A stretch of DNA of 64,000 nucleotides from Raja brachyura. Its lineage: Eukaryota. Positions 777-39,500 of the stretch are shown here, piece after piece. The stretch lies in contig OY740807.1 in the NCBI GenBank assembly GCA_963514005.1, positions 29,264,001-29,328,000 on the forward strand, in the 5' to 3' direction. Every line of letters starts with the position of its first letter. Within the stretch, counting starts at the first letter, position 1. The translations under genes and the position numbers were made by a program. Under the pieces are notes generated by a model. The model worked only from the letters and a program-made list of their open reading frames with translations, made no database searches and was not told where the DNA came from.

Positions 777-983
777 GCCAGAGAAGTTTCCAACAAGATC
801 CTGAAAGCATCCATTGAAAGCATCGTTTCAGATTCTGAAAGAAGTGGATTATTTGCACAGTGGGGCCAGTGGATTACTCATGACATAAGTTTAACTCAAC
901 CATCCAACAATATCCAGGCCTTCAGCAATGGCATCAACTGTGCAACATCATGTGTTCAGAAAGCTCCTTGTTTCCCCATTAAG
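777..983 (+). CDS. Gene A exon (207 nt), distal His region AREVSNKIL...[12 protein letters not shown]...PCFPIK
   Basis: cttcag|gcc acceptor, aag|gtacag donor; same length as the paralogous gene B exon. Confidence 0.93.
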
Positions 984-3900: not shown

Positions 3901-6900
3901 CCCAAAACATCGCCCATTCCTTCTCTCCAGAGGCGCTGCCTGTCCCACTGAGTTACTCCACCATTTTGTGTGAACCTGGCCCTGATGCGCCCCCTGCAGA
4001 TCAGCTCGCTCAGCTGCAAGCTGCCTTGTGGATCAGTGCCGGGAGCACCTACTTACTGGGATACTCGGATCTCAGCGCTCCAATGCTCCGGGATGCTGCT
4101 TGTAGGTCAAGCAAATTCAATCCCTCCCTCTTCCCTACTCCAATAGTTTCAATAAGAGAAACCCAGAGGTATCGGTTGAAGATATGCTCCTTTGTGATGA
4201 ATTTAATTTGGAGCTGCCGTACATTCTGATGAATTGTTAATAGAAAAATTAAATCAGTCTTTGAAATCTTTTTTCGTATTTGCCAGAGCCTTTTATTCTT
4301 AATAGAAATCACATTATGATCCTCTTTCACATAGTGAGAACACCGTGTATACATTTGGGGAATCCAATGAATATATTAGAAGAATATCCAGGTCACAGGA
4401 CTTAAAACTGTTCTGGGAAAGTCAGGAAACAACCCATGGAGTCTTCATCTATTATATTAGAAACATAGAAACATAGAAAATTGGTGCAGCAGTAGGCCAT
4501 TCAGCCCTTTGAGCCAGCATCTCCATTCAATATGATCATGGCTGATCATCCAAAATTAGTACCCTATTCCTGCTTTGTCCCCATATCCCTTGGTTCAATA
4601 AGCTTTAAGAACTATATCTAACTCTCTTAAAAACATCCAGTGAATTGGCCTCCACTGCCTTCTGTGGCAAAGAATTCCGCAGATTCACAACTCTCTGGGT
4701 GAAAACGTTTTTTCCTCCTCTCAGTCCCAAATGGGCTACCCCTTATTCTTAAACTGTGACCACTGGTTCTGGACTCCCCCAACATCGGGATCATTTTTCC
4801 TGCATCTACCCTGTCCAATCCCTTAAGAATTTTATATGTTTCTTTAAGGGGTTGTCCCACTGCGGCGACCTAATCTGTGAGTTTAGAAGAGTTTTCCCTC
4901 GACTCAAACTCGTAGCATGGTCGACCTGTGGTCCTATGAGGTCACTGGAACTCTTCTTCATGCTCAAGGGAAGGTCCCGCATACTCACGGCCTCAGTTTG
5001 GTTGTAAATTTTCCGCTAGTAAAAATTGGTCAGCATGGTTCTTTTGAACTCATAGAGCAGTGGAGTGGGGTTGCTATGTCGTTATACGCAGTCGAGGGCA
5101 GCTGTAGGCAAGCTCCTTCGCTGACCAGGCATTTTAATTGGCTCATTGTCGTTTTCAGGACCAAGGAAAACCGACCGGTAATGTAAAATGCCCGCTAAAC
5201 TTTATTATGTTGTATGGCTTCTTAAAAGTGTCTCTCCCCCCCCCTTCTCCCCCCTTCTCTCTCCGCCCCCCCCCCCCCCCCCCCCCCCGCGCACTCTCTA
5301 GAGGACTTACCGTACACTGTGCAGCCGTCTTTTACATTCCTATTCATCGCGGGTGTGAATTTCAGACAGTGCTCCCCCGCTTTCCCTGGCCCCCGGCTTT
5401 GTTGTGTGTGTGTGTGCGTGCGGTCGGTCGATCCAGCTCACGGTTTCATCGCTGACGGTCGATCCAGCTTGAGGTTTTTCAGGCGAGTGCCCTCGAGCTT
5501 GAAGGTCGAAGACAGTCGCTGAAAGGTCGCGTTAGTGGGACAGGCCCTTTAAGTTCCCCTCTCATCCTTCTAAATTCCAGTGAATACAAGCCCAGTCGAT
5601 CCATTCTTTCATCATATGTCAGTCCCGCCATACCGGGAATTAGCCTGGTGAACCTATGCTGCACTCACTCAGTAGCAAGAATGTCTTTCCTCAAATTAGG
5701 AGACCAAAATTGCACAAAATACTCCAAGTTTCATCTCACCAGGACCCTGTACAACTGCAGTAGGATTTCCTTGTTCCTATATTCAAATTATTTCGCTATG
5801 AAGCCCAGCATGCCATTTGCTTTCCACACTGCCTGCTGTACCTGCATGTTTACTTTCAGTGACTGATGTACAAGGACACCCAGGTCTCAATGCAACTCCC
5901 CTTTTCCTAATCTGACACTTCAGATAATAATCTGCCTTTTTGTTCTTGCCACCAAAGTGGATAACCTCACATTTATCCACATTATACTGCATTTTATTAA
6001 AAACAATTGCTGTGATAATTTGCCCCTTGTAGCTCTTGATATTGGCAATGGAAGGAATGAATAACAATGTAAAATATAGAGTGACATTAAGGGCAATACC
6101 TATAGTGCAAAGTCATATGTCCTTTTAACTTGCACGTGTATTAATGCTGTCTCATCTTGCACCTGCTATCTTGGACCTTGAGAGAATAGTGCCTGACAAG
6201 ATTATGCAGTTAATTTTCCCCTTCTTGCTTCCATTCCCCGCCTTTACTGCTCCCTCAAACATTGTGAAATCTCTTCAATGTTAATTTACTCTCAGCCCTA
6301 GGGCAACCACTCCATGTATTTTCCACTATCCACAGACGGTAATTCAATATGCACTGTGGCCACTTTGAGATCTAAAAACCAGAACGATTGCAAATTAATG
6401 CAGGTGTACACTGATAGGTGTCAGTTGACAAGCACAAATTCTAGCAACACATGAGAGAAACGCACATCTTAAACAGTGTTACGGTGGTCAGCTGCTTTTT
6501 GAAAAAATGTCCAATTTAATTTAAATGTGAATCATTTCTGTGCACAGGGCTCTGTCCTATAATTAACTCTAATTCTCTTCCCACAGATGCACCTGACCTA
6601 CTTAGTATTCCAGCATTTTGTTATTATTTTAAATTGTACATTAAAACCATTCCAGAGACACTTCAATAGTAAACAGCTCATGCATTCATTAAACTGCTCC
6701 CCTACCCTGATCTATCACCCCTTCCCTTGTTGTTCATCCTCAGGTAACTTGTGATGACCTTCAGGCTACAGACAGTCGACGGTGCCTTCCATTCACCCGT
6801 TCGGCTCTCACATGCCGCTTGGGATTTGGGAACAGGAATGGATGTGAGCAGATCAATGCACACACAGCTTACATCGACGCCAGCAATGTTTACGGCAGCA

Positions 6901-9900
6901 CAGAAAACCAGGCAAAGAAACTCAGAAATTTCACCAATCAACTGGGCCTGTTGAAAGTCAACCCAACCTTTTCAGACCACAACCTGCAATATTTGCCTTT
7001 CAGAAATGTTAGCCAGCCAAATGTTTATCCAATGGCCTACAACAAGTCCTTATGCCCCAGTATTAATATTCCCTGTATGCATGCTGGTAAGAAATTGTTG
7101 ATGGTGATGTAGAATAAATATAACACCGTCCTAGTGTTCAAGTTATTGAATATCATGCACACTGTCCTCTGAGCCATCATTAAGCCTGCTAAAGGGATTG
7201 TCCCACTTTTACGACCTCTGCAGAGTTTGCCCTTAACTCATACTCGCAGCATGGTCGTCACGAGGTCGTAGGAGGTCGTAGGTAGGTCGTAGCAGGTCGT
7301 GATACTAGTCGTAGGTACTCGCGGCATCAAGTAGGTCGGGGTGTTTTTTCAACATGATGAAAAATGTCCACGAGTAAAAAAGGTTGTGAATTAGATGGTG
7401 AAAGTGGGACAGGGCCTTAATGTGAATACTGCATATTTATTTTTTATTTTTTTAAATATTTTTATTAGAAGCATGTATACAAATAATAGTACGTGACAAT
7501 GTAATTACAGAGTTCTTACATAGCTTCATTTTTTTTGATTTTTTTTTAAAGAATAAAGATAAAGAGAGAAAAAGATAAGAGAAACTATAATCTAATAAAG
7601 AGAAAAAGAGGACGAAAAAAGAAATTAAAAATAACAAAATTGTGGAGATAGATCCAGGAGATGTTAAGTGTAACTATTCATCCAATCCCAAACTCAGGCT
7701 TCAATGCTGATCTTGTGTTAAACCAATTTACTTTTTCAAGAATTCAATAAATGGAGACCATATTCTAACAAATAATTCTGGTTTGTCAATTAAGACAAAT
7801 CTTATTTTTTCCAAATGTAAGGTGTCGGTCATTTCCGTAATCCACATTTTAATTGTGGGGGCTGCTGTTTTTTCCCAAAATGTAAGTATTAATTTTTTCA
7901 CAGTTATTAGACTGTAATCAAGAAAGTGTCTCTGTACTGCACATTTAGACCACTGGATCAAATCTGAGAATCTCTGCCTTTCTGATCAATCAGGCCATTT
8001 ACCTGGTATACATTCCTCGAACCACCTCTGCTTTAACTAGTTATTTAGAGATTCATTTTGCCTTATTTGTTCACTCCTATTTGGTAATTGCAGATCCTCG
8101 GACTATTAATCGTAGCATAAATTCACTCACCCATACATTTTGACCTCACGTTTTCATCCTTGTGTAAATAATGCAATTATCCCATCAATCCTAGGCGATG
8201 GCCGAGCAAATGAAAATTTGGGACTGTTGGCATTCCATACGATATTTCTACGGGAACATAATCGTTTAGCGAGGGAGCTGAAGAGACTGAATCCACACTG
8301 GAGTGGAGAAACCATCTATCAGGAGGCGAGGAAAATCATTGGAGCTTTTCATCAGGTGAAGGCAAATTGGAGCATAACTGGAAATGATGCGAGGTTTTGT
8401 CAACCAGGTTTCCAAAGTTCATTCAGTTCTGGACATTTCTAATCTGTCTGGAGCTACCACAGATTAATTGATAAAGATTGACTTCCAGGATCATTTCTGT
8501 TATATCATGGAACCAGCAGGTTAGAGAAAGAGAAAAAGCAAACCTTTATCCACCTAACAGTTTCTGTATTACTGTATCTCCTGTGTTATTGTAAATGTGG
8601 GACTGTACACACGTGGCAATCTGCACCTCTTTGCATGTGTCTAAGCAGTTCCTTATCATACCTTTCAATAGTGACTTTGCATCCAAATTATAAAATTAAG
8701 TAACTTTATGGATGCTGGGAGATTGGCTTAGGGAGCATTGAAATAACTCTGGCTGGAGGTGACAATAAAAGCACAAATTCAGATTCCATTATTGAGTAGA
8801 TGAGGCAAGGACAGAGGCCGACTGTGTGAAATATAATCTCTCCTTATAAGTGGCAAAATATGAATTGGAAATCCAGCTCTGGTTAAGATATACATATTAC
8901 TGATTTTCTTTCATCTGAGACAGTAAGTGGGACAGAGAATGGGACCTGTGGCAAGGCTACCAGGTTTGTGATGGGTTCAAAGATGATTGTTTGGATTAGG
9001 TGAAAGAAAAGCAGGAGACATTCCTGTTACATCCCTGTACCCAGTCCATGCTCCTGCAGAGGAAGTCTATTTCGGAAAGTAGAGTAATGGAATGACAATC
9101 AGAAAAGAAAGTGAGAGAAATATTTTAAAAGCCATTTGGACAGATTCATGTATAGGAAATATTTAGAGGGATATGGCAAACCTAGGCAGGTGGGAGTAAC
9201 ACAGATGGAGCATCTTGTTTGTTGTGGGCAAATTGGGCCAAAGGTCTGTTTCTATACTGTCTGACTCCATGACTAAATAATGGAGGAGAATTAAGGAGTG
9301 TGAATCAACAATTAAAACAATATATAACAAATGTTTAATAATTCCTTTTTGCTTTTTCTCCAACAGATTATAACCTACAGGGATTATATTCCGCGGGTAA
9401 TTGGAAAGCATGCAACGAGGAAGTACTTATCCGAATATCAAGGCTACAATGAATCTGCCGATCCCAGGCTTGCTAATGTTTTTGCTACAGCTGCCATGCG
9501 CTTTGGGCATGTTACTGTGCAACCAGTGGTGAAACGTTTCAATGAAATGTACCAGGAGGACCCAAAATATCCCAGCAAATTCCTGCATGATACTTACTTT
9601 ACTCCGAGGAATCTAATCGAGGAAGGTCTGTAATATAATTATTATTCCATGTGCAAATAACAGCAGCCAAGTTAAATTATTGCTGCACTTTGGTGTTCAG
9701 TAATTGTGTTAGAGTGGGATCGGTCATAGAACAACTTTCTAAGTTATGCTTCCAAATTCCCAAACAGATACAAATAAGATCAACTACAGGAACTAATGGC
9801 TTTTGTACTTTCACATCAATGGCCTAGGTCTACCACGAGTTTGGTGCAGAGGTTGTTTCCACCATGTCTCATCAAATACTCATTATTGAGATATAGAATA

Positions 9901-12900
9901 AGGGGCAGCTGTAAGGGTGGCATGTGGCACAGCGGTAGAGTTGCTGCCTTACAGCGCCAGAGACCCTGGTTCGATCCTGACCATAGGTGCTGTGTGTACA
10001 GAGTTTGTATGTTCTCCCCGTGTGTACGTGGGTTTTCCCTGGGTGCTCTGGTTTCTTCACACAGTCCAAAGATGTACAGGTTTGCAGGTTAATTCGCTTT
10101 GGTAAAGATTGTAAATTGTTCCTAGTGTGTAAGATAGTGCTAGTGTATGGGGATCGCTGGTGGGCCGAAGGGCCTGTTTTCGCACTGTATCTCTAAACTA
10201 ATTAATTTGAAATGTCTGTAGGAAAGTGCAAGATCAAGACTATGTCATAATGGATGTTTGCTCTAATTTTAGTAGAAGACACCTTGTATGGGTGTAGTTA
10301 TAACTATACACAATATAGTTAGGTTCACATTCAAATGTACATTTCCTTTACATGCACTAAGTAGCCTTCTCACGAACTACATCAAACAACTATTTTTGGC
10401 TTAATATTTAAATGTACTGCCTTAATCGGAATGTACTTTACTCACACAACATCTGTAGCAAGTAATTACATTTCTTTATCAACTCGAGTCCCTCAACTCG
10501 ACTTCTCATAAAATAAAGATCAAACTTCAAACTGGTAAGTTCTCGCTTAATCTTACTATTTTCTTCCCCTTTAATTTATACCTGTAACTCCAAATCCACA
10601 ATTGCTCCACCTATCCATTATCCCACTATTTAATCCGACTGGATGACATGTGTTCTGAATTTTGTTGCTACACCTATTATGTGGCACCTTATCAACAGCT
10701 TCTGAAAGCCAATGCATATCACCTCGACTTTATCACCCTCATTGGCACTCTCATAAGTTAATAAGTGATAGGATCAGAATTAGGCCATTTGGCCCATCAA
10801 GTCTACTCCACCATTCAAATTATAGCTGATCCGTCTCTCTTTCCTAACTTCCTAACTCCATTCTTCTGCCTTTTCCCCATAACACCTGACACCCATACTA
10901 ATCAAGAATCTATCTATGCCTGCCTTAAAAAGGTTTAATTAGTAACCATTTAATTTCCTTCTGTACCTCAACTCAATACCCTAGGAAGTCTCCCATACTC
11001 TCTTGGTGACTTACCTACAATGAGTTATTTACATTTTTCTAATAATTCCGTGCCATTTAAAAAAAAAATCTGATTTACAATCCCATTTTCATTTAAATTT
11101 AATCAGGCATTAAATGTAAACATAAATAGCTGTTGTTTGTTGTTGTTTAGGAGGTATTGATCCAATCATCCGCGGTTTATTTGGTTACCCGGCCAAATTG
11201 CAGACCCAAGATGCAATGATGACAGATGAGCTGAGGGAGAAGCTGGTTGTATCAGAGCATGAGATGAATCAGGACCTATCTGCCATTAACATACAGCGAT
11301 CCAGGGACCATGGGCTCCAAGGTAATAGAAGATGGTTTCAGTGAAGGTCCTGACTTACTGATTCAGCTCCCTCAGCCCAATCAGTCACTAGGTGTCGATA
11401 ACTATTTTGCCACTCTGTGACTTATCCATTTGTTTAAAAAAAAATAGATGATGAATCATACAGGATGCTATATTACATAGGCTCAATTTGCAAATTCTCA
11501 GATTGCACAATTGTTGATGCTCTTTATTTTCTTGCACTTATCTTTTTTTTGTTTATCTTAACTGATGAGGAAACAATTAACCTCCATCTCCCAACCCCAA
11601 ATCCAGGTTACAATGCATGGCGAAAGTTCTGTGGACTATCTGAACCCCGTGGTCTCTTTGATCTTTCATTCATCCTCAAGAATATGGAACTTGCATCTAA
11701 TCTCCTCGAATTATATGGAACGCCAGAGAACATTGACGTGTGGGTCGGGGGAATCTCTGAACCCTTTGAGGAAGGTGGCAGGGTGGGCCCATTGTTTAGC
11801 TGCTTGATAGGACGACAGTTCAAGAACCTCAGAGATGGAGACAGGTAACAAATGCATTGTGATTTTAATTACAAACCTGTTGTGGAAACTGAATCTATCC
11901 AATCCAATGACTCGATCGGTTATACAGGTCCACCACTGGTTTTCCGGCACACTTGGTTCCAGCGCATTGCTGTATTACCCGCTTTGCTGGACCAACAGAG
12001 GCCCACAAAGTCAGCCGCTATGGGAACAGATCTGCCGGCTCCGACCGGGTCAAGTCCAGAGCCCCCGCAGCAGGGGGCAAATCCAACTCACCGATCGGCC
12101 ACGAAAGTCCCGATGAGGTTGAGATCGGTCACCTCACCCAGCCTAGGTACTACAAAATCAGGGTGACTTCTAGGGAGGGGGTTTTAAAGTGCGTTCTTGT
12201 AATTTTGTCCGGATTAAAGAAGGTGCTAGCCCACATTACTGGAAAATCGGTGGTGGTCCTGCAATTTTACTTCGCTCATCTTATTCACAATAAAGATGAT
12301 CACAATACAGTTTTAAACAGTATTAAACACAATACAGGTCACTCTTACTGCAGTCGGCAAAAACAAGTACACAAGATAGAAGAAACTACAGGAAAGTAAG
12401 AGGGTGTAAGGAGGGTATTATTTAAAATTGGGGAATTTAATGTTCATACCATTGGATTGTAAGAAGGAACTGCAGATGCTGGTTTAAACCCGAAGATAGA
12501 CACAAAAAGCTGGAGTAACTCAGCAGGACATGCAGCATCTCTGGAGAGAAGGAATGGGTCAAGTTTTGGTTTGAGAATGGTCTCGTTCCTCCCATTTGCA
12601 TGTGGCCTGGCAATGGAGGAGGCCCAAGACAGAAAGGTCATTATGGGGATATCTCTTCCTCTTTCTTCACAGTTCTTTGGCGACATAAGTCCTTGCTCAC
12701 AAGGCTTTTCCCATACCCTTTTTCTAGGAGTAAGCAGCTCCATGTTCAAATCACGAGAAAACAAGTACATAGCAATGTGTAGGGTTCTGTTTCTGGGCGC
12801 TTGAAGTAGCAATAGGGTTGTGCAGGTCAGTTTTCAAAACCTGATGGTTGTCGGAAAGGAGCTGTTTCTGAACCTGATGGTATTAGACGTCAGAATTCTG

Positions 12901-15900: not shown

Positions 15901-18900
15901 CACCACCAATCCAGTAAATCTTTTGCAGCTAGTTTCTAGAGCTAATTTCCTCTCTAACCTTTGACCACCTCCACCATTTATAAGCACCTTTTTCAAAGAT
16001 CAAGGTGACTCTCTGCCAACTGCAATCCTTTTCGGTTTCCTGCCTGAATCAACGGGGCAGGTCATAGGGTTGTCTTGCCAACAGCATGTCACTAACTATC
16101 AACTTTTGGCTACTGCCTCACCATTTTACTGGAAGCTGATCCAATAATTTGAGTTGAAATGCAATTATTTTCCGGATTGTATCTCCGGTCGCTCTGCAGC
16201 CTACCATCGATGGATCGATTTTTACTCTGTATCTCACGCCACAATTGCTGCCTGACCTGTTGGGTATTTCAAGCATTTTAAATTTTTATGTATGCACTGA
16301 TCTTGATTTAGATCAGCCTGTGGGGTGGAAGATTGCAGCCTTCACGTGGTCCGCCCAGTTTCAACGAATGCAATCAACCAGGCGTGCACAATCAAATAAG
16401 ATCAAATAGAACAAGTTGTCCTACACCTTTAGGCTGTGCACGCCATACGCACGAAGATCAGCCTGAGAGATGGAGAATGTGAAATGATTTGGGGATTCTT
16501 ACATCACATGCAGTTGAAAGACCAACCTTGACAAAGCCATGCCCCAGCAAAGCCAGGTGTCAGATAGTTGTTATCCCAGCACATTCCCGAAAATGTGCTC
16601 AGCAATTTTAAGGTCTGACGTATAAGTGTGGACATTTGGAATATTTTAACCTTAGAAATTTCTTTTAACTACATATAATACAATATATTTATTTGCAGTC
16701 CACCTAATGCCATTTTGTGTCCATGCACCAGAATGGAGAAGACCAGTTCTCAATATTATCCTTAACTTAAGAAAGACAAACAGGTTATCACAGTAATGTC
16801 TCTAAGGGCTCACATATATGAATAACATAGGTTGGTGATATTATTTAGGGAGACACAGTAGACAGAGCTCCGCTACGACAAATATCAGTTGCATTGGGAT
16901 ACATAAGCGATAAATGTTTTTTTTTTAATATATATATTTTTTATTAGAGTAGGTAAGCAGTACATTAGCAAACACATATTATGATAGTAATATTTCGTGT
17001 GCAACAATCATACATTATTAATATTATCAAATGAATAATTTTGTCTCTAATAAAACACTTTTTTTTAAAGAGAGAGAAACAGAGAGAAAAATAAAATATA
17101 AGTCAAAAAGAAATCATGAAGAATGGAATAATTTACCATTAATACGTCATTGGAGATAAGATCAAGGAATATAGAATATAACTTTTCATCTAATCCTGAG
17201 TCCAAATTTCAGTTAGGGTTCCCTGCCGAACCGATCTACCCTTTTAAGTAATCAATGAAAGAAGACCATATTCTATAGAACAAAGGGATAAATGTTGACC
17301 TAAATCTTCTCATTCTTCCTAATATCGGTCTCTGTATTTCTTTGTTTTTTAGATTCTGGTGGAAAAACAAAGGAGTTTTTACTGCTAAGCAACAGCAGGC
17401 TCTTCAACAGGTCTCATTCTCTGCCTTCATCTGTGATAATACCAGGATTGAAAATGTTCCTTGGGATGTACTTACATTCAGACCATACCCAGAAGCTTTT
17501 GTCAGGTGTGATCACATACAACGAGTGGACCTGAGGGCCTGGAGAGAAATGATTGATGGTATGTTGCTAATAAACCTTCAGTTAGTTCAGATATTTGGTT
17601 TGAATCATGCTGGCAGTGGAACCTCATGTTCACCCTATTTATGCTCTAGACAAAAAATAATTAAAAAGACTAAAAAATAAATAAGTAAATATAAAGATAG
17701 AAATAAGCCCTATTTTTGCCCCAGACACTAGACAGTGGGCATGCATTGAGTCTGGCGCTCACCGAAAGATTGGCAGAACTTATTCTGTCAAGCTTACGAT
17801 GCCACTGGACTCTACGTGGAGTCCTACGGCACGGCTCTGTAATGTTAATTTACGGTGTTTCACTGCAAAATTGTTTCTCAGGTTCCTCGCCCGTTCAAAC
17901 TCAGCGTTGAAACTTGATGAGGTCATCGGTTTAAACGGGGATTGTTAGATAAAACGGCGGGAGGTAGTTGGGAAAATATGTTACTTCACTTGATTTTAAA
18001 TTTATTTTGCCAACTTGATCTTTACTTTCTAACTTATTATTTCAACTATGAATGGTTCTTAATTATCCCTAAATGCCATTTACAAATTGTTAAAATCTCT
18101 TCCAACTCTGACAGTAGGGAAAACACACCGCTGGCTTTGTCTGTGGTCAGAGACAGGAGCTTTCCTCAATGGTCTAACCATTCCCTGGACAACATCACTG
18201 GACTCCACTGGGCAGAGAGCCAATCTGACAGCCTTCCACATCCAGCCCATGGTCAGTGCAATCATGCAGTGACCACAGGCACCAAGTCTAGGTTGACACA
18301 GTTATTTTTGTCCTAAAACTAAGATCAATGTGGTCAAATGGTGATGGCTCTTAACATTGAAGTAAATTCTGATTCTGACCTCTTAATAACACAAAGCTGG
18401 GTGGCAGTGGGAGCTGCGAGGAGGATGCTATGAGGATGCAGGGTGACTTGGATAGGTTGGGTGAGTGGGCAGATGCAGTATAATGTGGATAAATGTGAAG
18501 TTATCCACTTTGGCGGCAAAAACAAGGCGGCAGATTATTTACTGAATGGTATCAGATTAGGAAAAGGGGAGGTACCACGAGACCTGGGTGTCCTTGTACA
18601 TCAGTCACTGAAAGTAAGTATGCAAGTACAGCAAAATGTTCCCAATATTGGGGGAGTCCAGAACCAGGGGTCACAGTTTAAGAATAAGGGGTAGGTCATT
18701 TAGAACGGAGATGAGGAAAAACTTTTTCACCCAGAGAGTTGTGAATCTGTGGAATTCTCTGCCACAGAAGGCAGTGGATGCTAATTCGTTGGATGTATTC
18801 GAGGAGAGTTAGATATAGCTCTAAGGGCTAATGGAATTAAGGGATATGGGGAGAAAGCAGGAACGGGTGACTGATTTTGGATGATTGGCCATGATCATAT

Positions 18901-20961
18901 TGAATGGCGGTGCTGGCTCGAGGGGCTGAATGGCCTACTCCTGCACCTATTTTCTATGTTTCTTGATTATCCCCAGTTTTTAATGCTGCACTATAAGCTT
19001 AGTTTTGAAATTACTTCCCCGATTCTCTCAGTCTCTCTTTCCTCCTGTAAACACTCCTTTAAATGAACTTCTTTGATCAAGCATTTGCCTATCCGTCCAA
19101 TTATTTCCTTTGCTAATCTTCTGTCTTTCACTATGTTAAACTCACTTGTTCAACTTCAATATTTACACAACTTTTCTGAAGTGTTCTTTCTTACATTTAG
19201 AACATTCAGTCACTTTCCAGATCACTTTTCAAAACTTTAATTTATGTGATTGATATGTAACTGAAACACTTTAAACTACTGTTCAATTTTATACTTCAGA
19301 TGATTCCAACAACAATGCTGACAAAATCAGTTAAATGGATTAGGTTCAAAGATATTATCTAGCTAAGTACCGTGTAAAAAAAAAAAAGATCAGCATTTTA
19401 ATCTACTTTATAAATTATCAGTAGTATTTAACTTTAATCCGGTTCCTTTTCACTCTGTATGTAAACATCTTCTCAAGTCTGAGGTAATCTGTCAAAGACC
19501 CATGAAACACTTTACTTGTTGTCTTCGTTATATCTCTGCCTTCTTAGGCAGCTCCTTGGGATTAAAGATATATCACTTCCACTTTATTCTCTGTATTTCC
19601 CAGTGCCCAATTTATACATTCTGTAACCTGCAGAGTCTATGGTGCAGCAAATCTGTAACAGAGTGAGTTGGAGAAAATTATGGAGACGGCATAATGTTTC
19701 AACTATCTATGTCGGGTGCCTATGTGCTCAGGATGAAAGGATGAGATTCTCAGAGCCACCTAGATAGACTCTTCTCCGCTTTAAATAGTCACGGGTCATT
19801 ATCACAGTCAGTGATAATATGACAGTTTTTCCAAGGAAGATGTAGAATTATACTTAAGTAATTTCTTCTATCCACTTCATAATCTCTGCTGTGACAGATC
19901 TTGGAGCAGAGTGTCTGTTTCGTGAGCCTGGTGTCAGGCATACAAATAAGATGGCCTGTCCAAGCGACCCAGCTATGTGTAATTAAGCCTCAGTCACACT
20001 GACCCTGGTTCACATGGCTTGCCAGTAGATTTGTAAGATTTTGCTGAGACAGTATCAGTGATTCGTACAGTGCTTTGAAGTGTCTGTTGTGTTTTATGTC
20101 TCAGAAACATAGAGGAAGGCACAGATAACAGCTGCCTTGCAGCTCGGGGACCTTCAGTTGGGTTTGAGACCCCAGTCTCACACACTCTTCTACTCAAGTA
20201 GCTCAGGTTGCATTGAGGCACTGTGAGGCAATTGTGGAGTTCATCACCAGTGGCTGTCTTTGTTCTTTCTGCACTGACCGCCACTTACACTTATGATCCA
20301 GAATCACCTACATCTAAACTGGAAAAAACAACTATTTAATTTCAGTCAGTCTTATTGATAGTCAAAGGAAAGAGTTCCTCTTAAATATTCAACAACAGTT
20401 CAGATTATATTGATGTAAAGTCCATACGATAAGGACAGTGCTTATAATTTGACAAATGCTTATTCAGCTATTCCTTGGAACGCTAAACCTCTCTTTAATA
20501 ACAGCTTCCATTTCTTTTCTTTACAGGAACCTCTTGTGGAGCCATCCCTTTGGTCTCTCATGCCCATTTTTCAGTCTGCGAATCCTTGGTCACATACACC
20601 TGCCGACCTGGATTCGAACTGGTGGGAGGAGACACGATAAAATGCCTGAGCAATGGACTGTGGAACTCTGCACCACCTACTTGTACTGGTAAGAACAAAA
20701 AACCACTGGGGAAGGAAATATATTTAATCTTGCATTCTGCAATAAATTCTCTGTCACGTCACGATAAAAGTTATGTTTCTTTAGCATGTGCCAAATTTGA
20801 TGAGCGTAACCATGGTCATATTAAAAAATATATTTTCAGAACTTCCTGGAAACTTGGACAAAATACCAAATGAAGATGAAAATGAACTTGACTCAGCAGA
20901 ATTGGACCAGGTTACAGACTTTGTTGATGGTTCAGGAGATAGTCATTGGGCTGCAGTCTAA
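777..20961 (+). CDS. Gene A: heme peroxidase (EPX/MPO/TPO-like) with C-terminal Sushi domain, 5'-partial; join(777..983,6744..7086,8195..8355,9367..9625,11151..11321,11607..11844,17353..17558,20527..20688,20840..20961)
   Basis: Peroxidase motifs [67 protein letters not shown]. All introns GT-AG with matching phases; exons sum to 1869 nt (623 codons including stop). Confidence 0.93.
1025..1330 (+). mobile_element. tRNA-derived V-SINE/HE1-like SINE
   Basis: tRNA-like head (gattcgatcc B box) and central tttgtacattctccctgtg..gtggattttct domain. Confidence 0.8.
2100..2158. repeat. Short tandem repeat of ctgtgat / ctgtgatcaaaaa units
   Basis: Directly visible. Confidence 0.85.
2605..3410 (-). mobile_element. 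GC/CpG-rich non-autonomous retroelement-like repeat; related segments at about 14210-14835 (-) and 63540-64000 (+)
   Basis: Shared layout (G tract, cggcctaccatc motif, LINE-like 3' end aatttcactgcacc...gtgacaaaa); its ORFs have no recognisable protein features. Confidence 0.55.
4460..5990 (-). mobile_element. CR1 LINE 3' fragment with (atagaaac)n tail, interrupted by a MITE
   Basis: CR1 RT C-terminal peptides [54 protein letters not shown]. Confidence 0.88.
4847..5548. mobile_element. PIF/Harbinger-type MITE (TIR agggNNtgtcccact, TTA TSD) inserted in a CR1 fragment
   Basis: tta|aggggttgtcccact ... agtgggacaggccct|tta. Confidence 0.85.
6744..7086 (+). CDS. Gene A exon (343 nt), CLPFTRS...[18 protein letters not shown] (Ca-binding loop)...IPCMHAG
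   Basis: cctcag|gta acceptor, gctg|gtaaga donor; open frame. Confidence 0.9.
7193..7417. mobile_element. Harbinger-type MITE, TAA TSD, internal aggtcgt repeats
   Basis: taa|agggattgtcccacttt ... aaagtgggacagggcct|taa. Confidence 0.85.
7440..7934 (-). mobile_element. L1/Tx1-like LINE 3' end, 5'-truncated, with poly(A) and ~13-bp TSD
   Basis: ORF2 C-terminal-like peptide [19 protein letters not shown]...LHLEKIRF...IWSPFI; TSD tactgca(t/c)attta at 7427 and 7935. Confidence 0.8.
8195..8355 (+). CDS. Gene A exon (161 nt), [11 protein letters not shown]...[10 protein letters not shown]...GAFHQ (distal Arg and heme Glu)
   Basis: cctag|gc acceptor, cag|gtgaag donor. Confidence 0.95.
9367..9625 (+). 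CDS. Gene A exon (259 nt), [10 protein letters not shown]...[12 protein letters not shown] (proximal His)
   Basis: caacag|att acceptor, gaag|gtctgt donor. Confidence 0.94.
9918..10200 (+). mobile_element. V-SINE/HE1-like SINE
   Basis: tggcacagcggtagag A box, ggttcgatcc B box, CR1-like tail. Confidence 0.85.
11151..11321 (+). CDS. Gene A exon (171 nt), [10 protein letters not shown]...[16 protein letters not shown] (absent from the ORF track)
   Basis: Translated by hand; ttgtttag|ga acceptor, caag|gtaata donor. Confidence 0.94.
11607..11844 (+). CDS. Gene A exon (238 nt), [11 protein letters not shown]...NLRDGDR
   Basis: atccag|gt acceptor, acag|gtaaca donor. Confidence 0.95.
12820..13330 (-). 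mobile_element. Degraded Rex1-like LINE 3' fragment
   Basis: [15 protein letters not shown]...ILTGCIMA...IIKDPHHLG peptide. Confidence 0.7.
15455..15875 (-). mobile_element. CR1 LINE 3' fragment
   Basis: ggtgcaggagtaggccattcggcccttcgagcc 3'-UTR motif shared with other copies. Confidence 0.8.
16321..16454 (+). mobile_element. Short ~135-bp retroposon with 11-bp TSD AGATCAGCCTG
   Basis: TSD at 16310 and 16455; reversed copy at 26155-26296. Confidence 0.8.
16919..17286 (-). mobile_element. L1/Tx1-like LINE 3' end with 10-bp TSD GATAAATGTT
   Basis: T-rich tail; similar to 7440-7770; TSD at 16909 and 17287. Confidence 0.72.
17353..17558 (+). CDS. Gene A exon (206 nt), FWWKNKGVF...ICDNTRI...[11 protein letters not shown]
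   Basis: tttttag|a acceptor, gatg|gtatgt donor. Confidence 0.93.
18395..18965 (+). mobile_element. CR1 LINE 3' fragment with internal deletion
   Basis: [19 protein letters not shown] peptide; typical 3' end. Confidence 0.85.
19520..20310 (-). mobile_element. Degraded RTE-like LINE fragment
   Basis: Remnant of the RTE C-terminal GH...MPDTRL.KQ motif on the minus strand near 19910-19960. Confidence 0.5.
20527..20688 (+). CDS. Gene A exon (162 nt), Sushi/CCP domain CGAIP...VC...[30 protein letters not shown]
   Basis: CCP consensus (YxCxxGxxLxG...CxxxGxW...PxC); symmetric phase 1-1 exon, ttacag|ga and actg|gtaaga. Confidence 0.92.
20840..20961 (+). CDS. Gene A putative terminal exon, acidic tail [40 protein letters not shown]
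   Basis: tattttcag|aa acceptor 151 nt after the Sushi donor; the phase-1 frame is open for 40 codons to TAA; AATAAA at about 21519. Confidence 0.65.
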
Positions 20962-22544
20962 TACCAAACGTATTTAGCCTGGCAGAAATGAAATAGGGGA
21001 GGTGGAAACTGGATTAAAGCTCAGGGTTTCCTGGATGAAGATGAAATTTATCACTCGTTATTGCAAATATGAGCTCAGCCACTACGTGCATTCTGCTGAG
21101 GTCCAGGAAAAGTACGTGTCTAGAAGACAGGAATTTCCCACACTCCATCTGTAGTAGGTTGATCATTAGCAGTGCACTCAGTCACCAGTTCAAGATCTTT
21201 TGATTCCAGACCTGGTATTTTATGTTCATTTGATCCAGTGATATGAGTAACACTGACAAGGCAGCAAATATTGTGCATGGTAGTTGCTGGGAGAGCATGG
21301 TTGGCCTTTCTGGAACCTCTGCCTACTATGGTATGCTACCAATCACCAAATTATAATTTTAGTTAATCTAATGATTTTCACCAAGGGATATTGAAGAGAC
21401 TGTTCACACCAGCATGTTGTATGATTAAATGGGAGATTGGAGTTCTGATGATCTCAAGGTAATGCTGCTGATAGCTTCCTGGGATATGTTGGTTGTCTGT
21501 TCCCTGTAATTTCACTACAATAAAACCACCAGGAAGTTAAGACTCTGTTCTTCCCATCCTATTACTCCAACACTTGCAGAGAGTTGATTCCAAACATTTA
21601 GTGTCCAGTACAGAGTGCTATATAAAATATATTCTCTGAAGTTGGTTACTTCCTCTATGAAATTAACACCCTCCCCTCCCCCTGAACTCAACAAGAACAC
21701 TTTAAACCAGATGATGCAATTCAATGGGGGCATCAGACTCAGTTAGAGCAGGATAGATGAATTGGAGCTATTGTACAAGGCACTTCATGTAATTATCATA
21801 AATGCAGCATTTACAGTTGTTTCTATGTGGATGATACATCAAACTGAAGGTACATCGTTCTAATTAAAACCGAGCTCTGTTCTTGTGTCTCCTATGCCGT
21901 GTTCCCTCCTCCATCAATGAAACTCCTGCTGTTTGTGAGAACTGGCTCGACGAGACTTGCATGTCTCATTTGCCCTCATAGTCATGACGCAAGTTCAATA
22001 ATATTTAATCTGCGGTTGTCTAATGCATGTAATCCTATTTGTAATTTGATTAATTAATCTATTCGTACTCTGGATTAAAGTTGTTCCAAGCTAATACTCT
22101 GCCTTTTTAACTATGACAATAAATTTCTACTGTGATTATCTCTGCTTGTCAACGCTATAAAGTGAAGCAGCATTAAACAATATATTGAATGATGGAGTGG
22201 AAGTGTTCCTGGCATGATGACTTGCACTCATTCTGATAGCTAAGGGAGCATACTCCCTTTCATTCCTTTCTTCATTTCACAAATGTTAAGGTGCCACACC
22301 TGAAAATTTCCCAAAGGGGTTTAGGCATCACGTAACTTGTAAAGCATGCAATTAAATGAACATTAGTTGCAATGATTCTGGACTTGGTGCAGTGTTTAAT
22401 GAAAAGCTTGTTCAATGGAAGTTAAAGCTATTGTATTTGTTTTTTAAGGAAGTCCAACCATGCAGAAAGAGTGCTGCACAATTAATTTTAAAAATGCTTT
22501 AATTATCTTGGATTTAATTATGCTTAATCGGCCTGTCCCACTTA

Positions 22545-22916
22545 AGGGCCTGTCCCACTTTCCCGAGTTATTCAAGAATTCTCCCGAGTTATTCACGAAT
22601 TCTCCTGAGTTTTCAAACTCGCCGAATGTTCGTAACGAATCCGTAGGAGTCCATGGATATATCGTAGCGGCTCGTTGTGCCAGCCGTAGGTACTCAGGGC
22701 TATTTTTTTTACTCGTGGACATTTTTCATCAGGCCAGAAAAACATCCCGAATTACCTGATGCCCCGAGTACCTGCGGCTGGCATAACGAGCTGCTATGAT
22801 ATATCCACGGACTCCTACGGACTCGTTACGAACATTCTGTGAGTTTGAAAACTCAGGAGAATTCGTGAATATCTCAGGAGAATTGGTGAATAACTTGGGA
22901 AAGTGGGACAGGCCCT
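22545..22916. mobile_element. Palindromic Harbinger-type MITE (372 bp, TTA TSD) nested in the TIR of a related MITE (about 22529-23210)
   Basis: tta|agggcctgtcccacttt ... aaagtgggacaggccct|tta; long inverted arms with 21-bp subrepeats. Confidence 0.88.
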
Positions 22917-23730
22917 TTAGGCGATTTTTCAGCCGACTGCCGGCGAATGTCAAGTTGCCGGCAGTCGCCTGAAAAACTGGGAATTGGAACGGCGACTGTC
23001 AGAGTGGAACACACACAAACACATCGCTTCCTTCACCAGCCCATGTGAATTTTTTAGACAGCGCTTCCCCCCCTTGCCCTGTCTAAAAAACATACGGTGC
23101 AAAGCCAAGGTGATATACAGATACACACTGCGATGAACAGGAGGGTTGGCGCTGTAAAAAGACAGCTAAAACACGGTGTACGGTAAGTCCTTTAAAAGGG
23201 GGGGGGGGGAGAATCGCAGAGCAGACTCAATGGGCTGAATGGCCTAATTTGTTTCTATATCTTATGGTCTTATAGTCTACTATATCCTCCCCCCCCATCC
23301 ATTATTATCAGGGGGTCACTGTATATCAAAAATTCAACTGCATTAGCTGCACAAACACTTTTGGCTCCAAGAGCAGATCAGAAGCTTTGTAACCTGTGTT
23401 CAGTCACTTAGCTGGTGATACAACAGGTTTTTCAACATCTCTGAGGCCCACTTATGCTATAACCATATATAACCATATAACAATTACAGCACGGAAACAG
23501 GCCTTCTCGGCCCTTCCAGTCCGTGCCGACCATTTATTTTCCCCTAGTCCCATCTACCTGCACTCAGACCATACCCCTCCATTCCCTTCCCATCTTCTCC
23601 TCTTGCCAAGAAGAGGCACTACCTGCATGCTTCAGCCACAATGTTTGGTACAAAGCAGCTCAGTGAAGTGTTTATGCCACTCACTATCCAAAACACTCAT
23701 TCCTTTTCCTTCCCCTTAATTGAGCAAAAG

Positions 23731-24501
23731 CATCATAAGGTGGGGTTGGATGTAATTGGGTTGGTTGTGGGATATTATCCTCCAAATCTGATCAGAGACT
23801 TAGGGAATGGACAATGGAGCTGATGTTGCTCTTAATTATCAATGTATTCATTTCACATCCATGCAAAGTATCAAATTTCATTTACCTCAGTGCCTTGTTG
23901 TGGCTGCAGGATGTATCATCTACAAAATGCGCTGCAGATATTTTCCCCGTGCAGGTGCTACCCTGAAAGCACCTCTCAAACCTGCAACCTCTATCATTAA
24001 ACCCTTGACTTCACCCTTTTAGCCTTAATCTAACCTTTAACCCCTGACCCTCATCCTTCTCCACTCCAAGAGTCTTATTCAGTTGGAACTTTTCAAAGTC
24101 AAACTATTCATACAATCAGTGATACATCACAGCGTTTTTATTGGTTAATTCCACAACAGAATTACATTGCATCTCAGAAGCATAATCAGATGTGAATTAA
24201 TTTGTTCATTCTTGATTCGGTATCAGTGAGAACATTAATATATTCTAGAATTTTATAATTCTGTTAACCTAAATAATCATTTCATCCTATTTCCACCTAA
24301 AGCCTATGAGCGCCAGCAATGCTTAAGTTGAAGTTGGACTATAAACATCATAAGGTGAGGTTGGATGTGTTTGGATTGGTTGTGTGACATTGTCCTCCAA
24401 ACCTAATCATACTCACAGGGATTGGGCACAGGAGATGTTGCCGTTCGTAATTAGCAATGTATTCTTTTGAAATACAACCAAAGAAGTATCATATTTCGTT
24501 T
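23731..24501. repeat. Diverged direct duplication of ~155 bp (23731-23883 vs 24346-24501) covering the gene B stop region and 3' UTR
   Basis: catcataaggtg(g/a)ggttggatgt...tcctccaaa...caatgtattc...aagtatca aligns by eye in both copies. Confidence 0.8.
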
Positions 24502-24511: not shown

Positions 24512-27500
24512 CTACAGGATAAAATGATTTAAAGCAAGTTAGAACGAACTGTAACCACATAGTTGTTACAAAAGAGTTGGATTCTCTCTTAATTTCTCAT
24601 ATTTACTTACAACATTGAAGGATCTATTCAGGCCATCAACCCCATGCCAGCTATTAAACGGACCCATCAATCATATTCCCCCACATGTTTCCCTGTCATC
24701 TATTCTCTTCAACATGTCAATTAAATCCCCACTTATTCTGCTGCAAATTTTCCAGCACTAGGAGCAGTTTAAAATACCCAATTAACCAACAAACCTGCTC
24801 ATCTTAGATAGACACAAAAAGCTGGAGTAACTCAGCGGGTCAGACAGCATCTCTAAAGAAAAGGAATAGGTGACGTTTCAGGTCGAGACCCTTCTACACA
24901 GTCTGAAGAAGGGTCTTGACCCAAACGGTCACCTGGACCTTTTCTCCAGATATGCTGTCTGACCCATTGAGTTACTCCAGCTTTTTGTGTCTATCTTTGG
25001 TTTAAACCAGCATCTGCAGATCCTTCCTACACATATCTCCTGCTCATCTTTGGGGGTTATGGGAGGAATGTGCAAAGGAGAACATGCAAACACCACACAT
25101 TCTTCACCGGGAGGTCAGGACTGAATACGGATCTTTAGGATTATGAGGCAGTAGTATTAGTCATACAGCACAGAAACATGCCCTTTGGCCTAACTCGCCC
25201 ATGTTAACATGGATACCTATCTGAGCTATCTAATTATTATGTGTTTGGCTACATCCTTCTGTACCTTTCCTATCCCATGTACCTGTTCATTTATTCCTGA
25301 TTGTAGACAAGAAAGTAATGGAGAAACTGTATAACATCTCCACAGAGAGTAGAAGGAATATCAAGGAGAGCTTGAAGGAATGCCATTGATGGAGTTTTGC
25401 CCTGTGGCTGATCAATAGTCTGACATGACAACATTATATGATGATATATGTGCCAAGTAGCAGAAGTAAAAAGGTGGAGGACATACCAATATTTAAGAAA
25501 TAAAATTGGAAAATAAATGTTTTGCTGATAACTTGTTTTATTTTTAAGAAGGAACTGTAGATGCTGGAAAATCGAAGGTAGACAAACATGCTGGAGAAAC
25601 TCAGCGGGTGAGGCAGCATCTATGGAGCTAAATAGATCCATATGCTCCATAGATGCTGCCTCACCCATTGAGTTTCTCCAGCATTTTTGTCTACTTGTTC
25701 TATTTTGTTGTGTCTGTATCTTAATACCACCCACAATGAGGAAGCTGCAGTGATTATAGTAAATCTTTGAAGAAAATTAAATATATGAAGCTGCCTAGCA
25801 GATATGTTGTATTTCTGACATTTTAACATTGGATGTCCAAAGTCATTAAATAAACACCAAAGACAACATCCCATGGTTAGTATCCGACTGATACCTGGGT
25901 TCCAGCCCTACCTGTGCAACTGGGTGGAGCTGGGTCCCACTGTCCATTGCTCAAACACATTATTGTATCCGCTCCCACCAGCATGTGTCCGCACTCACAG
26001 GTGTATCTGATTGAGGATTTACAGATCGAGAAATGGGCATGAGCCACAGTGGGGGCGGATCCACAGGGAATCACTACAAGAAGAAAATGTCATTTTTACA
26101 TTCATGACGATAACATCAAGGGTCTGAAATGCTAGGGTTTTAATGGTTTTGAACGTCTTCATCTTGCGTGTGGCGTGCACAGCCTAAAGGTGCAGGACAA
26201 CTTGTTCTATTTCATCTTATTTGATTGTGCAAGCCAGGTTGATAGCATTCGTCGAAACAGGGTGGACCACGTGAAGGTTGCAATCTCCCACCCCAGTGGT
26301 TTTGAACAACGAGGAAGGACAAAATAGGACTTTGGCCACAAAATGAATGAAGAAACAGTTTATTAAAGGACAGCAGAGTAGGATACTATTCAGCTCATCA
26401 TATCTCACGTTCTTGAAACTGACTATCCAATTAATCTCACTCTCCTGCTCTGTCCTTATAGTGCTGCAATGTTCTCACCTTCATCGACCCGAATCCCATT
26501 TATTGTATCTGCCAGTTCAACCAGTGCATCCCAGGTGACAACTCATCTATCAAGAAAAATCGCTTCCCATATCTGGTTGTTTTACAAATTATCTCTGTAA
26601 TTGTGCTTCCTTTGGCACTCCGTCACATCTTTAGTACTTTACAAGTCTCTGTTAGCTAAGGAGAGCCACCCCGGGTCTAGATCTCTGGTACCGCTCTACA
26701 AAATATTTTCTTTGCTCTCTCAGGGGTTGACTTCCTTCCAAAGGTGTGGTGCCCAGAATTGGCATGATGCTTAAATTGCAACGTATTCTCTAAAATAATC
26801 ATTTATATTGCCAACAGGTTCAAGAGGATTGTGATCAAATTTGAGAAAGAGTGTTAATAGAAATGAGCTGTAACTTGCTGGATTTTGTGGGAGAATAATT
26901 TAATTGTCAAGCAGCTAATAGATGGCAGACCCCTCTGATCATCACATCTCCGTAAGAAAGCTTGCTCTATTTTAAGAGTTGGCCCTGTTACCAGATCTAT
27001 GGTGAGCTCGGAACAGCTCCTGGCTTTAGCTCACGATCTTCAGATTCATACACAATCAGGGCACCTAAAGGTCTGACCTGAAACATCACCTATCCATTTT
27101 CTCCAGAGATGCTGCCTGACCTGCTGAGTTACTGCAGTACTTTGTGTCTATCTTCACCTAATGGTCAACCTGTTTGATCAGGAGAAAGGACTGGAGGAAA
27201 ACAGCATCAGTGGTGCCAGAGACAGAATTGGGCCTAAGGATTACTCCAATAATTTCCTTGCACGATGAAAATATTCTTAAGCTTAGCGTATTGTTGACTT
27301 CTTCAAAGCTGCATCTTCACATCTCGTCGAATTTCCATCAAATATCTAGTCAGCTCCAACATAAACCCAATTTATATATTGGTCATCATAGACACAAAAT
27401 GCTGGAGTAACTCAGCGGGAAAGGCAGCATCTCTGGAGAGAAGGAATGGGTGACATTTCGGGTCGAAACCCTTCTTCAGACCTCAGTCTGAAAAAGGGTC

Positions 27501-36500: not shown

Positions 36501-39500
36501 TGGGCTTTTGGATGGAAATTCCAGTGCATAGGAGCTAATCAATGAAAGGCTTGGTCTTTAATGGTTGGATGAAGGGAAGGAGCATGCAGAAGAAGCTCGA
36601 GGAATGCAGAAATCATGGATTGAAAAGATAAAGGAGGTTGCAATGACATGAAAGAATTTGAACACAGGAAAGTTGTAGCTGTAGAAAAGACAATCCTGCA
36701 TTTGTGTGGGGTGAAGCAGCAGTTTAAAATAAGATGGAACCAAGGTTTGCACTATTTGTTGAGGAGAAACATTGTTGTTGACTTTAAAAGAACGGAGGAG
36801 AAAATATTTTCTCAAAAGTTTTGATATGTCAGCTATCTTCATGCTAATAGAAATATATTGCATTATTGCTGAAAACTAGGCTTTTAAAAAACAATTTATT
36901 TGGCAATATCTAAGGAACTGGTTAAAACTCTACTGTGCTTATTCTACCTCTATATATCAAGAACAAAGTATTCTGACCCTGATGGGAAAACATGGACTTC
37001 TCCGTGCACATGTTTTATCACAATGAATGCCTTCATTGAAAGTTTGGATGCTGCCTGATTGAGGGGCTAAGCCCAGGTCATGATCAAGCCATTGGCCCCA
37101 TTGCACAAAGATGTGAGCATAGTCCTGGTCCAAGGGTATCATCTGGTTGGACACCTGCAGAATTTTATTCGATACTCTTCGCACCTGAAAAATAAAAAAG
37201 GTAATAAAAGATATTGTGTTTGGAAACATGATTCTTGGCTCCTTAGAGAGTATCAGAATCTAGCAATGTCAACTCTTCATTACTGTATCTAGAGTCATGA
37301 GGGCTTTTGTTATTAATACAAGGCTTCCAGCTGCTAGGAGAAAAATAGCATAGGCCAGACAGGTCAGACCCAGTCTTTAGTGATCCATTAACCATTCAAT
37401 GGGTCTTACACTATTGTCACAAGGCCAGTGTACTTCATGGATTACCTGTGCGGAAGATGCTAAACTGAAGCGAAGGACAATCTTGAGATTGAGAGCCCCA
37501 TTACCTTGCTCCCACCTCTCCCATTGCCACATTTAGTTTGTGAATCTCTTTCCAGGGTCGACAGTAATTCTTCCGCATGCAAAGATCACAATAACAGGAG
37601 AAGCTGGGTGCCTGGTCTGCTGCGTCCTAGTGTGATTCATGGGCCTTCGGTCACATCTTTATCTTACTTGTGACAGGAATGCACTATTAACACTCATGCT
37701 GATTTATTCTTCACATGTTATAGATTTTCCTCTTCAACGTATCAGTGATATGAGTGTGTTTCAGGTATGCCATTGGAGAACAAAAGCCAGAGGAAATGCA
37801 TATGCCAGTTACGTTCCCCGGAACTGGATGCAGTGATGGGACTGAAAGCTGGAATGGAAGAAGTTTACCATCCCAGTATACGGACCGTATAATCCAGCAT
37901 CTGCAGTTCCTTCCTACACAAGGAAGAGGTTTCATTCATTAGGGATTCTGGTTTTCAATTGCTTAACTTAAGCCTCTTTTTATATATATAGTGCCACTTG
38001 GCTCCCCGAAACTGGAAATGGGGGAAATGGTTTTTCCCTTTGATTGCTAAGAGTGAGATTGTGAGAGAGGGAGAGTGAAAAGAAGGGGGGTTACACAAAA
38101 AGCTGGAGAAACTCAGCGGGTGCAGCAGCATCTAAGGAGCAAGTGAAAAGAAATTCTGCGCTGTCCCTAATTATCCATCTGAAGAATAACTTGCCTACCA
38201 GCGGCAGACGAAATCCTGAATATAACGTCCTTCTGCTCCAGCCCTTTGGAAGTGAAAACCCATCCTCATATTGAGCTGGGAGCCAGCGGGCAAATGCAAC
38301 ATTAGCCGCTCCCAGACGAGGATTCTTCCTAGAAAATTGACAAAATAAAACAGGTGAATGTAGCAACGTTACAAAATTTTGAGATTTAAAAAATCAAGTC
38401 TGCAATTTATCCCATCAGATAAAGCATAAAAAGAAGTTTAATTTGACACCTAATTTACTTTCATATCTTCAGTATTAAGAAAGTTATGGCCATTTTCATA
38501 CTCGGAAATTAGCATCTTGCTCCCCATTGCCTTTCAATTGACTTAACTCAAAAGCTGTGATCTGGGAAAGTTAAAAGCCCATAACTTTCTTAAAAATTAA
38601 GAGAACTCAATGAAATTTTCAGTTATTATAGATTGAAGCATTCTGAAACAAATATGAAACAATCTTACTTGGATGACCTGAAATTAAAGCATATAATTAG
38701 TTAGTTATCTAATTGTAGCTAATTACAAAATTCAATGAGTAGATCTAAACATCTATCCATGTCTTAAGAAAAGATAAACTTTTTTTAAATTGCCTAAGTG
38801 TCCAAATAACATTCACACAATAATCCACAATATAACATAATTTTTAAATCTCATTTTCATGAATTTCTGGGCCAAATGGAAGGAATTTAGTGTTTAATGC
38901 CTGTAAATTAATGGCCATTTAAATCAACTCGCGAGTGGGTTTTAGTGGAATGCGGTGGATTGGAACGTTGCGGTTAGCGGTGAACTCAGTATGAAAAATA
39001 CTGTTTGTTCATACATTTTTTTGGACCCCATTTCGCAACATAAAAATATTATTAAAGCCTCCCGAAAAACCAACTTTTAATATAAAAATAAACTATTTAC
39101 CTTTTTTCTCCCCTTTGCAAAATCCTTCCGGTTATCGGTTCTCACGGCTTTTGAAGGTGATTTTGAAATTACTCTAGTTAATAAATAATTTAGAGTAATT
39201 TAAAAATACCTTCATTCATGAAATGTCGGAGCGATTTTTCATCTGCAATGAAATCGCCCGACATTCATCGATTTTCCAGGTCTGTTGAAAAATGGCACTT
39301 TAAGCCCGCCCCCCTCTGAAAGGCGCCAAAGTCGCGCACACGGGGAGCGGCAGAACTGCAGCGCTGCTCAAGGTAAGTTTTGCAACATACCTAGTGAATG
39401 TATTTAATCTTATTTTTCCAAATTATTTCTGTCTCCATGAGTCACAAGTGATAGGAGCAGAATTAGGCCATTTGGCCCATCATGTCTACTCCGCCATTCA

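Follow-up and report, generated by a model that had tools for sequence, protein, structure and literature searches.

The window analysed here, a stretch of 64,000 nucleotides from the skate Raja brachyura, carries two peroxidase genes that lie tail to tail and share 56.5% identity across their common part. Gene A, on the forward strand, enters the window from upstream, where its 5' exons lie. The first exon within the window (777–983; Pfam An_peroxidase, E 4e-12) encodes the distal Gln (867–869), a Thr (ACT, 876–878), the distal His (CAT, 879–881) and the calcium-ligand Asp (GAC, 882–884). It is followed by exons carrying the distal calcium loop T-x-Y-x-D-x-S (6744–7086), the distal Arg (8203–8205) and ester Glu (8212–8214) together with an Asn at the Met243 site of myeloperoxidase (MPO) (8195–8355), the proximal His (9508–9510, in 9367–9625), the proximal Asn and Arg (11288–11290 and 11297–11299, in 11151–11321), a further part of the peroxidase domain (11607–11844) and its end (17353–17558). 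A sushi (CCP) exon (20527–20688; Pfam Sushi, E 9.5e-11) precedes the last coding exon (20840–20961), located by a tblastn search in which the Leucoraja orthologue matched at 88% identity, which encodes a short acidic tail and closes with a TAA stop (20959–20961). All nine exons have AG/GT ends and join into one open frame to that stop, and the product contains the animal haem peroxidase domain PF03098 and is 95% identical to the Leucoraja and Amblyraja proteins.

Neither an EGF domain nor a membrane anchor was found downstream of the gene A sushi exon, whether by Pfam or in the frame to the stop, and a search for membrane segments past the sushi exons returned just four hydrophobic stretches, apparently in introns or repeats. 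An EGF domain is missing from the orthologues of gene A as well. Since these begin with a hydrophobic leader, secretion is likely, and the gene A product is probably a secreted protein composed of peroxidase and sushi domains.

Gene B, the convergent paralogue, occupies 25912–47294 of the minus strand, with 13 exons found from the ATG at 47294 to a sushi exon at 26073–25912; the final exon and the stop codon of gene B were not found. It is 96% identical to Amblyraja P0029 and reads WGQWLDHD from 37100, with the Asp codon at 37085–37083. At 30752–30494 (minus strand) gene B shows C-x-R-Y at the proximal His motif, and the residue at its Met243 site is His; the other members of its clade share both features. 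Judging from the sushi exons on the two strands, both paralogues end as thyroid peroxidase (TPO) does, albeit without its EGF domain and membrane anchor, and a C1q domain has been added in many elasmobranch paralogues. The stretch that separates the two genes at their 3' ends contains a direct duplication of 160 bases, 77% alike (23727–23883 and 24343–24501), in which a shared open frame was not evident by eye. An inverted repeat of 380 bases with arms 85% alike (22541–22920) is probably a small transposon, and shorter inverted repeats are present at 24806–24996 and 25578–25694.

Loss of the ester aspartate in elasmobranch orthologues of gene A

In an alignment with human MPO from the PDB, the Thr of gene A matches without gaps the Asp that precedes the distal His. 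The spacing Asp260-His502-Asn587 in this alignment equals that of the numbering Asp94-His336-Asn421 given in a passage of PMC3533774, which fixes the site as MPO Asp94, the residue esterified to heme pyrrole ring C. The preliminary description of this DNA had reported Thr in place of the heme-esterifying Asp in gene A, Asp retained in gene B, and the distal His, Arg, Glu, proximal His and Asn of gene A intact, and the coordinates and alignment given above bear out each of these points. It had also considered a sequencing error unlikely. Public runs were checked over 740–1020, and three of them each yielded one contig across the whole stretch; ACT at 876–878 is identical in 3/3 contigs. These runs are labelled as three organisms, of which X1 is possibly the sample that the window itself came from; X2 and X6 are labelled as other organisms.

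A search with the motif exon led to five elasmobranch proteins, and the Leucoraja protein as query gave 1769 homologues. Among the best 120 of these 1769, the Asp is found in 107 and missing in 13, namely 12 gene A orthologues and one Latimeria protein, so that 107 of the 108 proteins outside the gene A clade (clade A) retain it. Further species were taken from cluster look-ups and one row was kept per species, giving 21 clade-A species (the window and 20 named ones). P0069 and P0083, which a simple motif pattern misread, were counted as Asp by alignment, and in P0310 the site was not readable. Three short, unrelated-looking proteins in the P0001/P0005 clusters (P0122, P0128 and P0137) are probably clustering noise and were left out of all counts.

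The Asp is missing in all 21 clade-A species, its place being taken by Thr in 12, Ser in eight and Asn in one. Thr is found in the window and 11 galeomorph sharks, and Ser in three skates, four myliobatiform rays and a sawshark, whereas Heptranchias alone has Asn. The three skates are the nearest named ones, Leucoraja, Amblyraja and Rhinoraja. The preliminary description had asked whether Thr is fixed among orthologues; with Ser in eight and Asn in one of the 21 species, fixation of Thr is rejected, and the fixed trait is the loss of Asp. It had also named Asp in orthologues or reads as evidence that would speak against the substitution, and none appears in the 21 species or the three contigs.

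Gln91, His95, Arg333, His336, Asn421 and Arg424 (MPO numbering) are unchanged in 21/21 clade-A species, Arg239 and Glu242 in 20/20 (the Rhincodon model is without that part), and the halide-site Gln is invariant in the clade. The Met243 site is Asn in 20/20 rows. The calcium site is looser, with Asp96 exchanged for Glu in 5/21 and Ser174 for Cys or Gly in 3/20 rows. In the window the ligands at Asp96, Thr168, Phe170, Asp172 and Ser174 are D, T, Y, D and S, and some orthologues vary. Clade A is further marked by changes at positions that are near-invariant elsewhere, including the equivalents of MPO Pro101, Pro151, Phe233, Arg370 and Leu420, and in 10/18 rows (batoids) by a change at the equivalent of Phe407, a residue of the substrate channel. 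These additional changes suggest a wider remodelling beyond the loss of Asp.

The window copy departs from the residue held by at least 85% of the clade at four sites, one of which is a Cys-to-Tyr change at 7026–7028. This Tyr (TAT), seen in a single genome copy, stands where Cys is found in 16/16 other clade-A rows and in 107/108 other rows, and a nearby clade-specific Cys may replace the one lost. The loop has three Cys residues, and different subsets of them occur in Mobula, Hypanus, Hemitrygon and Heptranchias. In the loop ahead of the calcium motif, in the exon at 6744–7086, clade A has an additional Cys just before E-Q-I-N; it is present in 16/17 rows, the position being Arg in 103/108 others. 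Our guess is that a bond between this residue and the Cys of the MPO dimer site might prevent dimerisation.

Open frames in the 20 named clade-A species, together with same-species-pair identities of 70–82% in clade A that resemble the 70–83% of clade C (78–85% in clade B), point to purifying selection on gene A; the pairs in clade C are perhaps not orthologous in the strict sense, and the 'Amblyraja' pairs of clade D use Leucoraja P0065. The motif exon agrees, with four synonymous and two non-synonymous changes between two related organisms (omega ~0.14, one-sided p 0.024, from six changes in one exon). Clade A nevertheless evolves faster than clade B, with batoids the fastest. Near-complete clade-A proteins of 824 and 741 aa are also encoded on two unnamed Logan contigs, 3550 and 2521 nt long; because gene A spans more than 20 kb, these contigs look like spliced transcripts. 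A pseudogene is unlikely in view of the open frame with canonical splice sites over nine exons and the low omega of the motif exon. Our verdict, on the strength of the sequences, is that gene A is real and biologically maintained.

Descent of gene A and history of the site

In an IQ-TREE phylogeny of 67 rows, from which the three motif columns had been removed, the 15 rows that represent clade A group together (SH-aLRT 100, stem 0.26), adjoined by the Asp-bearing clades B and C. A FastTree of 127 rows with 18 clade-A rows, in which the motif columns were left, agrees on clade A. A larger clade of 59 rows (SH-aLRT 99) contains clade A along with MPO-like rows from fish and tetrapods, and TPO-like and peroxidasin-like rows fall outside (these outgroups are unnamed representatives to which we assigned the labels). 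Gene A is thus placed by descent as a chordate family 1 peroxidase. It has the domain, descends within the chordate clade, has MPO, LPO and EPO as its nearest structures, and retains the distal Gln, His and Arg, the ester Glu (R-x-x-E), the proximal His, Asn and Arg, and the calcium site. What it departs from is the family 1 signature G-Q-x-x-D-H-D, whose first Asp is esterified to heme according to a passage of PMC4420034: the window has Thr, and Thr, Ser or Asn is found in 21/21 clade rows, for which reason gene A was not filed as a canonical member with two esters. The placement among vertebrate family 1 rows speaks against an identity as peroxinectin (family 3). The preliminary description had linked Thr at this site to peroxinectins, a link that was not confirmed, as the Asp-less invertebrate proteins in our sample, which includes no named peroxinectin, carry Asn, Val, Ala or Ser.

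Among solved structures, human MPO, EPO and LPO resemble gene A most closely, being its best PDB matches (MPO E 2e-203, LPO 1.5e-185), with the same catalytic residues, the same calcium loop and a similar propeptide; they differ in keeping the Asp and in being without a sushi domain. As the tetrapod MPO-like rows form a clade separate from clade A, gene A is not the orthologue of any single one of the three. An identity as myeloperoxidase proper was rejected, the Met243 of the sulfonium link being Asn throughout the clade. TPO shares with gene A the order of peroxidase domain and sushi domain, but gene A lacks the EGF-Ca domain and membrane anchor of TPO, and TPO-like rows keep the Asp; an orthology to TPO based on the sushi domain was therefore rejected, as the TPO-like rows lie outside on the tree and neither EGF-Ca nor a transmembrane segment is present. 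Pxd2 peroxidasins (PXDNL) are also vertebrate proteins without the Asp, yet by the account in a passage of PMC3533774 they have lost the distal Gln and the proximal Asn as well, both of which gene A keeps, and gene A is without the peroxidasin architecture. Databases label fish innate-defence peroxidases alike as 'eosinophil peroxidase-like', and clade-A proteins stand in RefSeq under generic names.

Sharks and batoids both occur within clade A, which places the loss of Asp before their split; on the tree, it would have happened on the clade-A stem after the duplication. The shark–batoid split dates to about 270–300 million years ago. Within clade A, parsimony needs three changes at the site and, on the species tree, gives Ser at the root and Thr twice. 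Since the three closest named skates carry Ser, the Thr of the window is probably a later Ser-to-Thr step, and it is common to the two related organisms among the three contigs. The gene tree places Heptranchias with its Asn first, which would fit a path from Asp over Asn to Ser or Thr in single-base steps, a nucleotide path deduced from the residues. The earlier argument that Asp to Thr takes two nucleotide changes thus holds against Asp as the starting residue, but the Thr of the skate can be a single step from the Ser that parsimony puts at the root.

Clade A was seen in elasmobranchs only, both among the best 120 of 1769 matches and in the 67-row tree. No chimaera orthologue was among these best 120, and chimaera P0032 as the outgroup to clades A and C was rejected (p-AU 0.002, the group having been picked after the first tree), so that a clade-A orthologue in chimaera has been lost, is unannotated or was missed.

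The Asp has been replaced elsewhere too. The myeloperoxidase-like proteins of Latimeria (XP_005992326.1 and XP_064425129.1) resemble gene A in having Thr in both records, in keeping the His, Arg and Glu, and in the combination of peroxidase and sushi domains; a single origin of Thr for Latimeria and clade A was however rejected (p-AU 0.004, again for a group picked after the first tree). The hummingbird Phaethornis likewise has Thr with His, Arg and Glu kept, and Colius P0304, which is absent from the tree, has His with the other checked catalytic residues retained. As far as sequences can tell, Latimeria (P0033/P0354/P0355), Phaethornis P0314 and Colius P0304 are independent vertebrate replacements. 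A different group comprises the unnamed P0184 (Thr), Pelobates P0252 (Ala) and Erpetoichthys P0301 (Gly), long-branch or degenerate family members in which the Glu or the distal His is also lost and which look like candidate non-covalent-heme or non-catalytic forms. The Asp is present in 26 of 30 additional proteins and in 118 of 130 motif matches from 149 further representatives, some of these matches being second domains or spurious; tetrapod sampling is thin, and such counts are not frequencies.

Predicted chemistry of the gene A enzyme

One paper calls the Asp, in a passage, fully conserved in this peroxidase family, and the covalent heme links are a hallmark of the family that sets which halides the enzyme oxidises. 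The formation of the esters starts with Compound I oxidising the Asp and Glu carboxylates, as described in part of PMC10679500. Ser, Thr and Asn have no carboxylate, hence the ring C ester should not form by this route, and the earlier expectation of at most one heme ester link in gene A would follow from the loss of Asp.

We consider it fairly probable that gene A encodes an active peroxidase with one ester, through Glu, similar to DdPoxA. After an ancestral duplication, the ring C ester Asp would have been lost on the clade-A stem and the site would then have moved among Ser, Thr and Asn. The heme would still be held by the proximal His, with H2O2 reacting at the distal Gln-His-Arg, and would probably be fixed once, via Glu. 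A lower reduction potential is predicted, such that iodide and thiocyanate would be good substrates, bromide a poor one and chloride none, and the oxidants would be milder than those of the two-ester paralogue gene B; a role of the putatively secreted enzyme in defence may be envisaged.

The model for these predictions is DdPoxA, which according to passages of PMC5787809 carries Ile where the Asp would be, shows a single ester, to Glu, in its crystal structure and has an antibacterial role, and which is the sole characterised natural one-ester case that we saw. Its E0 is -0.276 V, compared with about -0.18 V for LPO, and the potential forms a ladder with the number of heme links; rates with I- and SCN- exceed 1e8 per M per s, that with Br- is 15 per M per s, and chloride is not oxidised (PMC5787809, in part). 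Gene A shows the combination of features that marks this kind of enzyme, a non-carboxylate residue at the Asp site with the Glu and both the distal Gln-His-Arg and the proximal His-Asn-Arg triads kept, and DdPoxA is secreted as well. The two nonetheless differ in many respects: DdPoxA is an amoebal enzyme of family 6, distant from gene A (E 2e-58 vs 2e-203 for MPO), with Ile rather than Ser, Thr or Asn at the site, the passages of PMC5787809 do not mention a sushi domain, and the single ester was measured there and is predicted for gene A. The substrate prediction therefore leans on one distant enzyme. Other observations also weigh against it. In MPO and LPO crystals the Asp ester is fully formed and the Glu ester partial (PMC5377774, in part), so the Glu link may be weak in gene A too, and the calcium site beside the distal His is looser in clade A.

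A vertebrate subfamily without the Asp throughout sharks and rays, beside a paralogue with both esters that is 56% identical, amounts to a paired experiment set up by nature on the purpose of the Asp bond. It also suggests that fish innate-defence peroxidases divide their tasks in a way so far overlooked. The predicted effect of losing the Asp is a matter of tuning, for which there is a precedent. Compared with the preliminary description, the loss is broader, extending to a whole elasmobranch subfamily, and less singular, in that Ser and Asn also occur and it is repeated in other vertebrates. A description of clade A was not found among the papers listed in searches of the open literature, and passages of PMC7717901 and PMC9207270 hold nothing on gene A; subscription reviews of heme modification may show such sequences. 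More speculatively, and with considerable doubt, we propose that vertebrates several times (elasmobranch clade A, the coelacanth, some birds) made a deliberately low-potential one-ester form from a two-ester defence peroxidase. Sharks and rays might have kept it beside intact paralogues since before their split for a task of its own. It could oxidise iodide and thiocyanate on surfaces bathed in bromide-rich seawater, where a two-ester enzyme would be destructive, or it could cross-link the egg-capsule matrix. No other natural vertebrate subfamily with one ester and a complete catalytic site would then precede clade A.

An active peroxidase of little-changed chemistry, in which the Asp ester became dispensable after duplication and the clade was kept for its place or time of expression, strikes us as unlikely, though it has several points in its favour. 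Halogenation is not wholly abolished in MPO Asp94 mutants. In clade A the site has drifted among three residues, and the Asp has been lost six times on the 67-row tree. Moreover, by the title of a work cited in PMC9138014 the EPO Asp ester is partly formed in vivo, so that losing it may have smaller consequences than supposed. Yet no clade-A species among the 21 has returned to Asp, nearly all other proteins keep it (107/108 among the best 120 of 1769), other invariant positions alter on the same stem, and PMC5787809 (in part) describes a ladder of potentials that follows the number of links.

Somewhat less likely again is that gene A acts in the one-electron peroxidase cycle as a cross-linker of a tyrosine- or catechol-rich matrix, such as the egg capsule formed in the oviducal gland, and not as a halide oxidant. 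Elasmobranch egg cases undergo peroxidase-type tanning, and the restriction of the clade to elasmobranchs among the matches and on the tree, the changes at the equivalents of MPO Phe407 (batoids) and Leu420, and the lack of the Asp in matrix-type invertebrate peroxidases, e.g. the Trichinella 'mlt-7' with Val, would be compatible with such a function. The gene is however kept in live-bearing rays and sharks, an orthologue was not seen in the egg-laying chimaera among the best 120 of 1769 matches, the halide-site Gln is invariant, and among the papers listed on egg case or capsule and peroxidase none deals, by its title or the opening of its abstract, with gene A.

It is improbable that gene A is a pseudo-enzyme of the PXDNL type, retained because its sushi domain and surface serve in binding or adhesion. 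The loss of Asp does accompany decay in the Pxd2 peroxidasins (PMC3533774, in part), and in our sample P0184, Pelobates and Erpetoichthys have lost Glu or His along with it; within clade A, variation is seen in the calcium ligands and in one cysteine loop. However, the eight other heme-site residues checked are all invariant there, unlike in the decayed cases. A sequencing error or a decaying pseudogene in one genome, for which the four off-consensus sites of the window copy including Cys-to-Tyr at 7026–7028 and the location of the 5' exons outside the window could be cited, is the least credible reading and appears largely refuted already by ACT in all three contigs, the open frame with canonical splice sites over nine exons, 95% identity to two named skate proteins, and the clade-wide loss of Asp.
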